Source: an uncultured Methanosarcinales archaeon (GTDB lineage: Archaea; Nanobdellota; Nanobdellia; Woesearchaeales; CAIVOO01). Taken from it: a DNA stretch of 64,000 nt. Both the position numbers and the translations under genes were made by a program. The stretch spans positions 62,001-126,000 of the forward strand of contig CAZAIK010000001.1 in NCBI GenBank assembly GCA_964485195.1. The letters are read 5' to 3'. Each line of letters begins with the position of its first letter. The stretch's first letter is position 1. This document shows, piece by piece, positions 11,055 through 63,124 of this stretch. Below the pieces are notes generated by a model, which saw only the letters and a list, made by a program, of their open reading frames with translations, made no database searches and was not told the origin of the DNA.

Positions 11055-11489
11055 TTATAATATCCTATACCTGGGCGGGAAGAAAGAATAATCAAATTCT
11101 ATCCCTGCAGAGCTAATTGCATTTTTTAATAAAAAATTACCAAAGCATCCCAGCCTGCAATATCCTAAGTGTTCCCAAAAGGAATCATTCCTGTTATAAT
11201 TTATTACTATTGCAGAAATTTCCAACTTTCTGCACATAAATTCTTGAGCATCAACCAGAAGCCTTCCGTAACCTTGCCCTCTCCTGGAATTTTTAATTCT
11301 TAAGGAACCATCAAAACAAATTTTGCTATTTAGATCTAATGAAAATGCCTGCCTTCCAAGCTTATGAGAGCTAAAATTTACTTCCCACTTGTCTCCGAGT
11401 TTATCACAGTCTAAAGAATGCTTAAAACGCAATACGTCAAAGAATGCTTCTCTTGCTAACCCCTCCAGAATCCTTCCTTGTTTAAACAT
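11055..11489 (-). CDS. GNAT-like acetyltransferase
   Basis: RRGQGYGRLLV acetyl-CoA motif and FWEHLGY; start uncertain. Confidence 0.6.
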   Translation of the reverse strand: MFKQGRILEGLAREAFFDVLRFKHSLDCDKLGDKWEVNFSSHKLGRQAFSLDLNSKICFDGSLRIKNSRRGQGYGRLLVDAQEFMCRKLEISAIVINYNRNDSFWEHLGYCRLGCFGNFLLKNAISSAGIEFDYSFFPPRYRIL

Positions 11490-11544
11490 CAGAATCTGAT
11501 AAAACACAAACTTTAAAAACATATTTTTTCGCCATACTAACACT

Positions 11545-11670
11545 GCCCCGGTGGTGTAGTCCGGCCAATCATATCGCCCTCTCGATTAAGATGAGGAGAA
11601 AGGCGATGACTCGGGTTCAAATTAAGCCAAAGGCACATTGCCTTTGGCAATGAAAATCCCGGCCGGGGCA
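11545..11670 (+). tRNA. tRNA-Glu(CTC) with two introns (canonical 11585-11600; T-loop ~11622-11656)
   Basis: GCCCCGG/CCGGGGC acceptor, TCGCC/GGCGA anticodon stem. Confidence 0.9.
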
Positions 11671-11689
11671 TTCATTAACTTGGTGAAGT

Positions 11690-11854
11690 TTGGTGCGCTC
11701 CAAAGAGCTCAAGAAAAACAAAAAACTGACAGATTTTGAATGCCTTAAAGAATTCATCGTCGCTAATTCTCTCAAAAAGATGAAGGTCCTCAGAAGATTT
11801 TCCTCACCAGGCGAAAACAGGCTGCTCCAGGAATTTGACAGATTACAAAAATAG
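11690..11854 (+). CDS. small hypothetical protein (54 aa), not in ORF track
   Basis: GGTGA SD then TTG/GTG start, open frame to TAG 11852. Confidence 0.45.
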   Translation: MVRSKELKKNKKLTDFECLKEFIVANSLKKMKVLRRFSSPGENRLLQEFDRLQK

Positions 11855-11979
11855 AAAAGTTTAAAAACTCAAAAAGCTGTGTAATCATACGACGAACTTA
11901 TTCTCAAATTGTTCAGAAGCAGAGGCCTCTATATATTAGGGAAGGGAAGCATAAGTTTCTCTGCCCTGGAGATGAAGAA

Positions 11980-12039
11980 ATGGCAAAAAAGAAAGCAAAG
12001 AAAGAAGCTCCAAAGAAAAAGGGTAAGAAGAGGAAATAA
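11980..12039 (+). CDS. 19-aa poly-basic micropeptide MAKKKAKKEAPKKKGKKRK
   Basis: GGAGATGA SD-like sequence, ATG 11980, TAA 12037. Confidence 0.6.
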   Translation: MAKKKAKKEAPKKKGKKRK

Positions 12040-12051
12040 GGAGGTCCCAGA

Positions 12052-12147
12052 ATGGACGAAGATTTTGACTCGGAATTTGATGAAGACACCGGCAGCGAAG
12101 AGCCTGATGAAGAAACCGAAGAAGACACAGACGGCTTTGGAGAATAG
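12052..12147 (+). CDS. 31-aa poly-acidic micropeptide MDEDFDSEFDEDTGSEEPDEETEEDTDGFGE
   Basis: AAGGAGGT SD overlapping the upstream stop, ATG 12052, TAG 12145. Confidence 0.65.
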   Translation: MDEDFDSEFDEDTGSEEPDEETEEDTDGFGE

Positions 12148-12179
12148 AAGAGCAATAGTTGTTGATTATGATTATTATT

Positions 12180-12437
12180 TTATTTTTTCTTTTTTTGTTT
12201 TAACCGTCTCATAATGAGTTCCGCTTCTGACTCTGTCTTGAGGAAAACAAAGATAACAACGACGACAAGGACTGTGGCAAGTATCGCTGCAATCAGCTTA
12301 AAGAACAATTCTTCCCTTGGAGGAACAAGCAGCTCTATGAATTCCACGATGACATCCTTCCATATTAATGCTGCTGCAAAAGTAAATGCAGAAATTATGG
12401 CTGTCTGGATTACGCTTTTTGATGTGACCCTCGGCAT
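12180..12437 (-). CDS. small two-helix membrane protein (DUF5654-like)
   Basis: SAFTFAAALIWKDVI motif and two hydrophobic helices. Confidence 0.7.
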   Translation of the reverse strand: MPRVTSKSVIQTAIISAFTFAAALIWKDVIVEFIELLVPPREELFFKLIAAILATVLVVVVIFVFLKTESEAELIMRRLKQKKKK

Positions 12438-12493
12438 TTTTACCCCTTGATTACGGTAATATTTAAAACTAACCTTTTATTAGCTGAATTTAT

Positions 12494-12694
12494 GCCGGCG
12501 TCGCATAATCTGGTACATTGCCTTCGGCAATGTGGGCCTCCCTACTGCCGCAACTAAAGTACTGGGAGTCCCACCCCGAACGAGGCAGTGCAGGAAATTG
12601 CGGCGGTCTCGAAAACCGCTTCCGAAAGGAACTCCCGGTTCAAACGCTTTGCATTCCCCCCAAGGGATGCTCGCTGAAAGTCCGGGCGCCGGCG
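12494..12694 (+). tRNA. tRNA-Ser(CGA) with two introns (D-loop ~12515-12596; T-loop ~12645-12680)
   Basis: GCCGGCG/CGCCGGC acceptor, GCGGT-CTCGAAA-ACCGC, variable arm TTCC-GAAA-GGAA. Confidence 0.88.
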
Positions 12695-13441
12695 CTATTT
12701 TATTATGCTTTTAGAATTCGCAAGAATGGCTCTCTCAGCATCTTCCAGCTTCATATGCTTCAGCTCAGCTATCTTCCTGACAGCTTCCTCAACAAACGCA
12801 GGCTCGTTACGCTTTCCCGGAAAGGGCGACAAGAAAGGGGAGTCTGTCTCAGTAACCAGGCTGTTAATATCAACCTGTTTTGCAATTTCCTGATTTCCTG
12901 TATCCCTCACAACATTGGTTGTTATGGAGACAAAATGCCCTGCTTCAGCAATCTTCTTTGCCAAGCTTAACCTCCCGGAGAAGCAGTGAAAAACAGCATT
13001 TTTCGCATTTGAACTCTGCACCATTTCAAATGCCTGCTGCTCCATCATGCGCGAGTGGATTATAAGCGGCAGTTTTGCCTTTTCGCTTAATTCTATCATC
13101 CTCTGGAAAACTTCTTTTTGTCTCTTAACATTTGGACTGGGATATTTTCCTTCAAGGCCGACTTCTCCTATACCTGCAATCTTGTCCTTGTTTTTCTCAA
13201 TAAGGGAGATTGTTTCATCTATTCTTTCATCTCTCAGCTTTTCCGCCTCAATAGGATCCAGCCCCAGAGTTGCCTTGACAATATCATATTTTTCCGCAAT
13301 TTCCAAAGTCTGAACGTTTTCCCTGGCAATTCCATTGGAAACAATAAATGCGACGCCTGCTTTTTTTGCCCGTTCAATTAATTCATCCAAGTCCTTTTCA
13401 AATTCCTTCGCAGCCAGGTGCGCGTGTATGTCAACAAGCAT
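12695..13441 (-). CDS. tatD: TatD-family nuclease
   Basis: VDIHAH, IGEVGL, IIHSR, FHCFSG, ETDSPFL. Confidence 0.93.
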   Translation of the reverse strand: MLVDIHAHLAAKEFEKDLDELIERAKKAGVAFIVSNGIARENVQTLEIAEKYDIVKATLGLDPIEAEKLRDERIDETISLIEKNKDKIAGIGEVGLEGKYPSPNVKRQKEVFQRMIELSEKAKLPLIIHSRMMEQQAFEMVQSSNAKNAVFHCFSGRLSLAKKIAEAGHFVSITTNVVRDTGNQEIAKQVDINSLVTETDSPFLSPFPGKRNEPAFVEEAVRKIAELKHMKLEDAERAILANSKSIIK

Positions 13442-13526: not shown

Positions 13527-13961
13527 ATGCTGGGAATAATAGGTTTTAACCTTTCAAAAGTTGAAGCAGAAAGATCGCCCTCTGTAAAGGGCAAAATAAG
13601 CATTAAGAATAACATCCAGATAAAGGAAGTTGAAAAATCCGATCTTTTCCTGGGAAAGAACAAGCAGGAAGGCATAAGGTTCAGGTTTGAATACACCTCA
13701 AATTACGAGCCCAAGGCAGGAAAAATCCTGCTCGCAGGTGACCTGGTGGCTGTGGAAGAATCTGACAAGGTCAAAAAGATAGTGGATGAATGGAAAAAGA
13801 ACAAGAAGGTGGAAGCAGACGTGATGACACAGGTTATCAACAGCGTTCTGAACAAGTGCAGTGTTCAGGCAATCATACTCAGCAAGGAATTGGGCCTGCC
13901 TTCGCCAGTTCAGCTGCCCAAAGTGCAGGTAAAGAACCCTTCCGCCAAGAAAAGCAAGTAA
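13527..13961 (+). CDS. conserved archaeal hypothetical protein upstream of cdc48
   Basis: IIGFNLSK...ELGLPSPVQLPKV; host-like codon usage. Confidence 0.7.
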   Translation: MLGIIGFNLSKVEAERSPSVKGKISIKNNIQIKEVEKSDLFLGKNKQEGIRFRFEYTSNYEPKAGKILLAGDLVAVEESDKVKKIVDEWKKNKKVEADVMTQVINSVLNKCSVQAIILSKELGLPSPVQLPKVQVKNPSAKKSK

Positions 13962-61982: not shown

Positions 61983-63124
61983 ACAATGCGGCAACAACAC
62001 CTGTTGACAGGAAAGTGCTAGACGCTATGCTTCCTTATTTCTCTGAAAAATACGGCAATCCAAACAGCATGCACCAGAAAGGCCTGGAAGCAAGGGAAGC
62101 TGTAGACAATGCAAGGCAAAAGGTTGCCGAACTTTTGGGAGCTGACGAGAAGGAAATCTTTTTCACGAGCGGAGGCACAGAGTCTGACAACCTTGCATTG
62201 ATGGGTGTTGCGAAGGCATACAAGGAGAAGGGAAATCACATAATCACGACAAACACGGAGCACCACGCTGTTCTTGATACCTGCAAATACCTGGAAGATG
62301 CGGAGGGATTCAAGGTCACATACGTTGAAGTGCAGGAAAACGGGATAGTGAATCCTGAGGATATTGAAAAAGCAGTCACCAAAGATACCATATTAATCTC
62401 TGTTATGTACGCCAACAATGAGATAGGGACCATCCAGCCTATAAAGGAAATTGCAGAAATAGCCGAAAAGCACAATGTATTGTTCCATACCGATGCCTGC
62501 CAGGCAGCGGGCTATCTCAACGTCAATGTTGAGGATTTAGGGATTGACTTGATGACATTGAACGGAAGCAAGATTTACGGCCCGAAGGGAATAGGAATGC
62601 TCTATGCCAAAAAAGGAGTGATAGTAAAGCCCCTAATCCACGGGGGAGGGCAGGAGAGAGGCGTAAGGAGCGGGACAGAGAACGTGCCCGGAATTGTGGG
62701 GTTTGCAAAGGCGCTGGAAATTGCGCAAAAGGAAAGAGAAAGAGAATCAAAAAAAGTGGCAAAGCTAAGGGACAAGCTGCTTGAAGGAATTAAAAAAAAG
62801 ATTCCCCACATCAGCATAAACGGGGACATGGAAAAGAAGCTTCCCAACAACCTCAACGTGTCATTTTTGGGAGTTGAAGGGGAAGCAATGCTTTTGCACC
62901 TTGACAAGGAAGGGATCTGCGCCTCAACAGGAAGCGCCTGCTCTTCCCATTCATTGGAGCCTTCCCACGTTATAAAAGCTTTGGGATTGAGTGATGAGGC
63001 TTCTCACGGTTCATTAAGATTTTCACTGGGGAAGCACACAACAGAGGAAGACATTGAAAAGGTTTTGAAGGAACTGCCAAAGATTGTTGAAAGCCTGAGA
63101 AAAATATCGCCCATAGCACCATGA
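61964..63124 (+). CDS. iscS: cysteine desulfurase
   Basis: YLDNAATT, HTDACQA, KIYGPKG, STGSACSS; GAGGTG SD before ATG 61964. Confidence 0.96.
   Translation: MRTVYLDNAATTPVDRKVLDAMLPYFSEKYGNPNSMHQKGLEAREAVDNARQKVAELLGADEKEIFFTSGGTESDNLALMGVAKAYKEKGNHIITTNTEHHAVLDTCKYLEDAEGFKVTYVEVQENGIVNPEDIEKAVTKDTILISVMYANNEIGTIQPIKEIAEIAEKHNVLFHTDACQAAGYLNVNVEDLGIDLMTLNGSKIYGPKGIGMLYAKKGVIVKPLIHGGGQERGVRSGTENVPGIVGFAKALEIAQKERERESKKVAKLRDKLLEGIKKKIPHISINGDMEKKLPNNLNVSFLGVEGEAMLLHLDKEGICASTGSACSSHSLEPSHVIKALGLSDEASHGSLRFSLGKHTTEEDIEKVLKELPKIVESLRKISPIAP

Follow-up and report, generated by a model that had tools for sequence, protein, structure and literature searches.

Prothymosin-alpha and the linker histone H1.0 are eukaryotic proteins of about 110 and 190 residues, respectively, encoded apart from each other, extreme and opposite in net charge and disordered even as partners. 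PMC7661507 describes their disordered complex. An arrangement that recalls this pair in miniature lies in a 64,000-nucleotide (nt) stretch of DNA (the window) from an uncultured archaeon of the order Woesearchaeales (positions 62,001 to 126,000 of contig CAZAIK010000001.1; C1:62001-126000 of a 1.13-Mb genome of 43% G+C in 32 contigs). Here, an open reading frame (ORF) for an oligolysine peptide of 19 amino acids (aa), ORF1, is directly followed by one for a polyacidic peptide of 31 aa, ORF2. We tentatively read the two, at a confidence that falls short of probable, as a small bicistronic micro-operon for an oligolysine peptide and an excess of a polyacidic peptide that neutralises or escorts it. 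The likeness to prothymosin-alpha and H1.0 lies in the extreme opposite charges (+11 and -18 here), in the lack of structure in the model of ORF2 and in the idea of a polyanionic escort. On the other hand, ORF1 and ORF2 are five to six times shorter, their affinity is perhaps far lower, and they have no sequence relation to the eukaryotic proteins (no Pfam match). By analogy, and without homology, the disordered H1.0/prothymosin-alpha complex appears to be the closest functional picture for the pair, and a polycation with its neutralising polyanion is a plausible reading.

Several other systems invite comparison. The tiny basic ribosomal proteins eL41, bL37, bS22 and Thx are missed by annotation, and resemble ORF1 in their size (19-35 residues), their very basic character and their stand-alone genes led by a Shine-Dalgarno (SD) sequence. 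However, ORF1 is near-pure lysine, has no Arg/Trp pattern and gave no profile match (with the read-through product of both ORFs as query), and the ribosomal proteins are not known to have an acidic partner. The bacterial H1-like nucleoid proteins with Lys/Ala repeats, such as Hc1 and Hc2 of Chlamydia and AlgP of Pseudomonas, are also Lys/Ala-rich polycations of low complexity, presumed to act on nucleic acid, and the poly-Lys ORFs of 40, 48 and 76 aa described below resemble their repeats. These proteins are much longer, though, are bacterial and are not known to have an acidic co-cistron, and none of the poly-Lys ORFs tested had a Pfam or NCBIfam match. DSS1/Sem1 are small, acidic, disordered cofactors that bind folded partners; ORF2 is similarly short and acidic, and the aromatic residues scattered along it (DFD, EFD, GFG) could anchor it on basic surfaces, but it has no sequence match to them. 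Like type II toxin-antitoxin systems, the locus has two small, co-oriented, coupled genes with a patchy distribution and a stronger SD on one of them. Unlike those systems, it has no DNA-binding antitoxin fold, both peptides are disordered and of low complexity, and no toxin or antitoxin domain was found in the ORF1/ORF2 region with Pfam and NCBIfam (PADLOC was not scanned). As for a leader-peptide attenuator, 11 Lys codons are present, and all that follows downstream is the 31-aa acidic ORF and then a terminator. Beyond gene layout and a run of Lys codons, the locus has no feature of a toxin-antitoxin system or an attenuator. The observation is real and falls outside any known family.

ORF1 (11980..12039, + strand, as are the features of the window given below unless noted) encodes MAKKKAKKEAPKKKGKKRK and ends in a TAA stop; by translation, its 19 residues include 11 Lys, 1 Arg and 1 Glu, giving a net charge of +11. 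ORF2 (12052..12147) encodes MDEDFDSEFDEDTGSEEPDEETEEDTDGFGE and ends in TAG; its 31 residues include 8 Asp, 10 Glu and four Phe with no Lys or Arg, for a net charge of -18. Re-translation agrees in this with the sequence-only reading of the window, in which a 19-aa basic ORF (12 K/R, 1 E) preceded a 31-aa acidic one (18 D/E, no K/R). Its further claim that each ORF has its own SD, the second overlapping the stop of the first, was also borne out: a weak SD core, GGAG (11968..11971), is separated from the ORF1 start by an 8-nt spacer, and a strong SD, AAGGAGGT (12038..12045), overlaps the ORF1 TAA stop and lies 6 nt ahead of the ORF2 ATG. A single-sequence AlphaFold2 model of ORF2 contained no secondary structure (mean predicted local distance difference test score 63.8, predicted template-modelling score 0.12).

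Expression signals frame the pair as a unit. ARAGORN detected 27 tRNA genes in this genome, and roughly 25-35 nt ahead of them is a box, RCTTTAWAAAY. (A count by position of TATA-like words ahead of long ORFs with an SD was too noisy, and the tRNA regions were used in its place.) A promoter-like box that matches these tRNA promoters, GTTTAAAAAC (11859..11868), is a candidate TATA box 121 nt 5' of ORF1. The motif [ACG]TTTA[AT]AAA[CA] has just two + strand copies in 11400-12800, this one and one at 11511 before a tRNA-Glu-like gene; genome-wide, 159 of its 236 copies lie within 15-200 nt before an ATG-initiated ORF of at least 60 aa, versus 80 of 176 for the reversed motif. The box predicts a transcription start near 11892. 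TATATATTA (11930-11938), 42 nt 5' of the ORF1 ATG, could be an alternative promoter. At the other end, no run of five T residues (T5) occurs within 45 nt of the ORF1 stop, and the first one lies 35 nt beyond the ORF2 stop; the T-rich tract TTATTTTATTTTTTCTTTTTTTGTTTT (12176..12203) is a likely oligo-T terminator, whose other strand encodes the KQKKKK tail of a convergent DUF5654 gene. In RNA fold prediction, the unit as a whole does no better than shuffled sequences (z = -0.27), which fits an mRNA rather than a structured RNA. A scan for sigma-70 promoters and bacterial terminators gave nothing above shuffles, these being bacterial models that are inapplicable to an archaeon. Overall, the unit looks like one small bicistronic transcript.

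How unusual are an acidic ORF of this kind and its position? With acidic small ORFs defined as 15-150 aa, at least 40% D+E and at most 10% K+R, the genome contains five, as against 67 basic small ORFs, and exactly one case in which an acidic ORF starts from -15 to +150 nt behind a basic one, namely ORF1-ORF2. In 200,000 random placements of the five acidic ORFs, at least one such adjacency arose with p = 0.024. Strong SDs are scarce here: among the 1158 first ATGs of long ORFs, 99 have an SD-like word before them. GGAGGT stands ahead of three of the five acidic small ORFs, as against 56 among all 18,347 ORFs in the 15-150 aa range (Fisher p 2.7e-7), and ahead of the second ATG of a fourth. There are 83 copies of AAGGAGGT in the genome, 15 of them with an ATG 4-10 nt downstream; these 15 sites comprise 13 that open ORFs of at least 50 aa, that of ORF2, and one that opens an ORF of less than 20 aa. 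The other acidic ORFs behind a strong SD, at C4:4608-4745 (45 aa), C5:15436-15600 (-) (54 aa) and C8:14756-15004 (82 aa), are not preceded by a lysine-rich micro-ORF. Only three distinct acidic small ORFs turned up in 486 kb of other loci examined. Judged by these start signals, acidic small ORFs are a real, rare and non-random gene class in this genome, and ORF2 is likely to be translated. For ORF1, the arguments for translation slightly outweigh those against it.

Codon usage points to the same two frames. By a codon-phase model trained on 559 long ORFs of the genome, ORF1 and ORF2 score +0.34 and +0.62 bit/codon over background in their given frames, the best of the six frames in both cases, a preference that is partly compositional in a proteome rich in Lys, Glu and Asp. 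Two other frames are open across the locus, each for 80 aa: a basic ORF at 11972..12214 that overlaps the pair, and an antisense ORF at 11913..12155 (-). That one of these is the true gene is scarcely credible, since they score just 0.03 and -0.27 bit/codon, respectively. The + strand frame also has neither a Pfam match nor a homologue; its ATG at 11972 abuts the GGAG with no spacer at all, and its end lies 35 nt inside the convergent DUF5654 gene. A -1 frameshift was considered as well, since codons 2-4 of ORF1 contain the heptamer A AAA AAG, a dnaX-type slippery site, and was rejected: by eye, the -1 frame closes after about 14 codons.

A second pair with the same layout is found in G022, a complete genome from another family of the order. 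There, a poly-Lys ORF of 76 aa, led by the SD AAGGAGGTG, is followed after a 26-nt spacer by an acidic ORF with the SD GGTGAGGGGTG that encodes 33 aa, 58% of them D/E and none K/R. The locus was pointed to by a DNA search with 11900-12200 against 40 relatives, in which the only matches were of low-complexity, A-rich or T-rich sequence. In G022 as in the window, an acidic ORF of 30-50 aa starts no more than about 30 nt behind a lysine ORF of the same strand, both ORFs have an SD, and the oligo-T terminator stands solely behind the acidic ORF. The two acidic peptides gave no BLASTP alignment at E <= 100, and a search of 400 other genomes of the order with the G022 peptide gave no relative at E < 0.1. 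The likeness between ORF2 and its G022 counterpart is one of composition and layout only. The operon of two separately initiated, oppositely charged micropeptides that the sequence-only reading had proposed is supported by sequence signals, namely the promoter-like box, the two SDs, the terminator after ORF2 only, the codon phase and the strong SDs on acidic small ORFs, and by this analogous pair. The activity that it also suggested, of a nucleic-acid condenser with its chaperone or of a toxin with its antidote, is conjectural. The pair is not retained in a relative of the same genus, G001, discussed below.

What might the pair do? On the reading we favour, 11.89-12.20 kb (approximately) would be an independently promoted unit, transcribed as a single RNA from near 11892 or 11960. 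ORF1, weakly initiated, would yield a +11 oligolysine peptide, and ORF2, strongly initiated, a -18 disordered peptide studded with Phe. The proposed excess of the latter would follow from its SD, far stronger than that of ORF1. The ORF2 peptide would bind the ORF1 polycation, and perhaps other Lys-rich proteins, electrostatically, and by buffering or escorting the polycation would keep it from sticking indiscriminately to RNA and DNA. What the analysis establishes is the sequence features and their statistics; transcription, translation, binding and a role with nucleic acids are all inferred from these. Joint translation of the two ORFs and their action as a charge pair seems to us possible rather than probable.

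ORF1 and ORF2 share one reading frame (12052-11980 = 72), a point that had escaped the sequence-only reading. The gap between them reads TAA GGA GGT CCC AGA, with 12 nt between the stop and the ORF2 ATG, so that uninterrupted translation would give ...KKRK*GGPRMDEDF.... This common frame makes it possible that the two are halves of a single 55-codon gene, basic in its N-terminal and acidic in its C-terminal half, that has been broken by a nonsense mutation or is read through at the TAA; a single base change in a Lys, Glu or Gln codon can produce TAA, and the shared frame with only TAA and GGPR between the ORFs tells in favour of this and against a bicistronic pair. Such a split gene is nevertheless very unlikely. 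The searches gave no intact relative, whether of 30-97 aa or of some other size, long ORFs of this genome end most often in TAA (535 of 1171), and a perfect SD with a correctly spaced ATG falls exactly within the gap. Moreover, the G022 ORFs lie in different frames, and one pair in three would share a frame by chance. The stop is also present in a second sample: a contig from run X2 spans 11540..12207 with a sole difference, at 11707, so that the ORF1 stop and both frames are reproducible. (X1 and X2 are DNA runs of one study, and X1 may be the source of this assembly; a look-up of runs containing the stretch gave none of RNA.)

The bicistronic reading gains and loses from what is seen elsewhere of oligolysine ORFs. 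ORF1 opens with MAKKKAKK, eight residues common to a class of small SD-led ORFs. A back-translated MAKKKAKK scan of the GTDB species genomes gave at least 119 stretches, with 80 loci having full flanks; 68 of these had a complete ORF and enough upstream sequence, and 33 of the ORFs were small, with no more than 100 aa and K+R of 50% or above. Among the matches listed, by record title, the 33 come from Planctomycetota, Saccharibacteria, Paceibacterota, Bdellovibrionota, Nanoarchaeota/Woesearchaeota and others, and an SD core precedes 21 of the 33, versus 24 of 35 longer proteins with the same start, which presumably include uS11 and uL1. Six archaeal members among these matches encode 12-17 aa and have AT-rich promoter-like sequence, an SD and a T-run. 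Within the order, KKKAKKK-coding DNA occurs in 121 of 401 genomes (nine of them unpublished), and the reversed control pattern is rare. ORF1 resembles the class in its start, in its Lys content (11 of 19 residues, where at least 50% was asked of a member) and in having an SD core within about 16 nt, weaker though it is than that of most archaeal members. It departs from the class in having no T5 run within 45 nt of its stop, ORF2 intervening, and in not being found at the same place in G001, where the segment is missing.

In two Nanoarchaeota/Woesearchaeota metagenome-assembled genomes (MAGs), L069 and L107, positions 701-739 encode a 12-aa peptide, MAKKKAKKKK[KR]R, with SD and T-run. In both, this ORF lies between the gene for glycyl-tRNA synthetase (GlyRS) and a convergent S17e gene, and the GlyRS fragments are, by eye, only about half identical. 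Its retention in two diverged MAGs indicates that such micro-ORFs are conserved genes. The genome of the window has two further poly-Lys genes, at C5:31482-31604 (40 aa) and C7:28745-28891 (48 aa). Both have an SD and an AT-rich promoter-like box, and the latter also has a hairpin and T-run terminator; the product of the former ends in AICTYC. G001 has 10-aa MAKKKKAKKK ORFs elsewhere, one of them followed by an SD-led MMAKKKSKKSAKKCSCC and then a T-run. Clusters of Cys occur at or in Lys-rich micro-ORFs of L176 (G001), the C5 gene just mentioned, L126, L103, L195 and L261 (CSCC, CTYC, CCCC, RCGC, PCCCS and KKKC); a polybasic stretch beside Cys is reminiscent of lipid-anchor signals. A literature search, of titles and, for three peptide strings, of full text, returned no paper on MAKKKAKK oligolysine micro-genes, and its titles held nothing relevant on lysine-rich small proteins of archaea or DPANN, polylysine small ORFs or operons of oppositely charged small proteins. 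Passages of PMC9297842 deal with the Lys-rich tails of uS19, not with micro-ORFs. As far as sequence can tell, oligolysine micro-genes of the MAKKKAKK class are widely distributed, in DPANN archaea as well as in many bacteria, and go unannotated, a by-product of this work that is better supported than the pair itself.

Could ORF1 simply serve ORF2? It might be an A-rich upstream ORF or leader that, through its translation or its 11 Lys codons, loads ribosomes onto the ORF2 start, or gates their access to it, by coupling or by occlusion with a paused ribosome, with the ORF2 peptide as the sole product. The signals are compatible with this, ORF2 having the strong SD and ORF1 just GGAG, and the ORF2 SD overlapping the ORF1 stop. 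In addition, T-poor purine runs are open in all frames, as the overlapping 80-aa frame illustrates, so an open ORF1 comes cheaply. However, the tiny oligolysine ORFs as a class stand alone with terminators of their own rather than acting as leaders: 13 of 18 archaeal examples have a T5 run no more than 45 nt beyond the stop, and in the other five there are T-runs further on, hairpins or a second ORF led by an SD. There is no sign of an alternative-hairpin attenuator either, nor is there a lysine-related gene downstream. We regard a leader role for ORF1 as the main rival reading, though an unlikely one.

A number of observations weigh against the charge-pair reading, and they are of three kinds. 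First, the signals of the pair itself are uneven. The weak SD of ORF1 may be hidden within a possible leader hairpin (11925..11984) that takes in TATATATTA, the ORF1 GGAG and the ORF1 ATG, although the evidence for this fold is weak (-25.8 kcal/mol for 11890-11990, z = -1.74, with 10 of 200 shuffles equally stable). Both ORFs are also purine-rich, a composition that could favour the two together. Second, acidic partners are rare beside other oligolysine ORFs. None was found at the 33 small MAKKKAKK ORFs among the matches listed GTDB-wide, at 23 KKKAKKK-bearing ORFs from 30 loci of the order, at 14 ORFs of at most 100 aa from 27 published loci of the phylum (three unpublished ones were dropped) or at any of 20 further loci. 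A partner was present at one of 38 distinct places (40 rows), which is G022, with L148 as a borderline case, and in all about 80 other lysine-rich small ORFs were examined without one being found. (At L148, tandem oligolysine ORFs of 26 and 18 aa enclose a 33-aa ORF with 30% D/E.) The acidic peptides of ORF2, G022 and C4 have no alignable sequence in common.

Third, the pair appears to be confined to this lineage. The query for the homology searches was the read-through product of ORF1 and ORF2, with X at the stop. No homologue of either peptide or of this product was found among 5.8 billion clusters (30-97 aa), and what that collection returned included no entry of the window itself for ORF1, ORF2 or the 80-aa frame. 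The read-through product was absent from 300 other genomes of the order and unmatched in viral, genome and metagenome contigs and in the ESM Atlas; as query P0001 it had no NCBIfam match, and its sole Pfam match, PBP1_TM, was below the cut-off. The only HMMER match in 1.84 billion representatives, a 3195-aa repeat protein with seven matching stretches, was judged compositional and spurious. The C4 acidic ORF and the C5 poly-Lys ORF likewise have no detectable relatives in 60 genomes. In the same-genus relative G001, whose TatD is 59% identical, a GNAT-like gene and TatD flank tRNA-Glu, tRNA-Pro and tRNA-Ser and nothing else; the whole 820-bp segment 11673-12491 is missing, with tRNA-Pro(CGG) in its place. 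The sequence-only reading had named loss of the frames and SDs from relatives as the outcome that would count against it, and at the syntenic locus that is what is seen. No closer relative was found in a metagenome collection, where the best TatD identity was 50% and the loci concerned held no pair.

These absences also speak for a bleaker view, that both ORFs are non-functional, arising by chance in the purine-rich spacer of a recently rearranged tRNA cluster. The segment is missing from G001, homologues are lacking in every collection searched, and ORF2 has short internal repeats (14 nt, at spacings of 27 and 12 nt, both multiples of 3) of the sort typical of low-complexity DNA born of slippage. 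Chance would have to account, however, for the coincidence of a consensus promoter box, a perfect SD of 8 nt at the right distance (6 nt) and a terminator after ORF2, as well as for the best codon phase in both ORFs, the adjacency statistic given above and the recurrence of the same layout in G022. We consider chance ORFs improbable. The unit, whose expression signals are better than expected by chance, is probably a real, young, lineage-specific micro-operon.

An intermediate possibility is that ORF1 is a genuine oligolysine micro-gene, with ORF2 having arisen recently or by accident in the region 3' of it and having no function linked to ORF1. Oligolysine micro-genes are common and normally partnerless, and ORF2 is an orphan with internal repeats, both of which fit. 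On the other hand, ORF2 has better translation signals than ORF1, the terminator has moved behind the acidic ORF in both known pairs, and acidic small ORFs with strong SDs are a rare and non-random class. An accidental ORF2 is, in our view, quite improbable.

Archaeal marks of the genome include tRNA genes with insertions, an S17e gene, a Cdc48-like ATPase and, close to the S17e gene, a 34-aa ORF at C2:1161-1265 (-), MKRSSRRWKKKGQMRWKWQRKKMKKEKRRRRAQA, that is presumably eL41-like, going by its motif. ORF1 and ORF2 sit between two tRNA-like genes that ARAGORN and Rfam do not detect. Relative to their G001 counterparts, the tRNA-Glu(CTC)-like gene (11545-11672) has a 16-nt insertion after the anticodon region and another of about 33 nt in the T-loop, and the tRNA-Ser-like gene (12492-12695) has large insertions. 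A near-identical, intron-like hairpin of 21 nt, GGYACATTGCCTTYGGCAATG, occurs in both and suggests related or mobile introns. Insertion of a mobile element between the tRNA genes was considered and rejected, there being no flanking direct repeats beyond this common hairpin. Besides the pair, segment 11673-12491 contains a doubtful 54-aa ORF and the DUF5654 gene (12180..12437, 85 aa, Pfam E 4.2e-11), which abuts ORF2 convergently. The latter is a divergent second copy without an orthologue in the family; a better copy lies at C5:56160-56357, and no charged micro-ORFs were found at 29 DUF5654 loci of the order (one unpublished locus having been dropped). Further downstream, between TatD and the Cdc48-like gene, a 144-aa ORF (13527-13961) matches no Pfam family above the cut-off.

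Genes of less than about 30 codons are not called by standard pipelines. In its widest form, the idea is that minimal-genome archaea encode polycation/polyanion micro-gene pairs, a miniature counterpart of H1 and prothymosin, in which an oligolysine peptide would coat RNA, DNA or ribosomes, and a co-transcribed, Phe-anchored polyacidic peptide would be its dedicated, disordered escort or off-switch. ORF1-ORF2 and the G022 pair would then be independent inventions or very diverged members, missed by annotation because both genes are below about 35 codons. So general a scheme is speculative, and we would not expect it to hold. If ORF1 and ORF2 should prove to be noise, the case would still help to gauge the reliability of promoter, SD and terminator signals, taken alone, in judging orphan micro-ORFs. 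A real pair, on the other hand, would mean that an ultra-small archaeon devotes two ribosome-binding sites, with their own promoter and terminator, to two peptides of near-pure charge. It would offer a very small natural model for disordered polyelectrolyte binding, and a candidate explanation for the way in which cells containing numerous Lys-rich proteins prevent polycations from binding the wrong nucleic acids.

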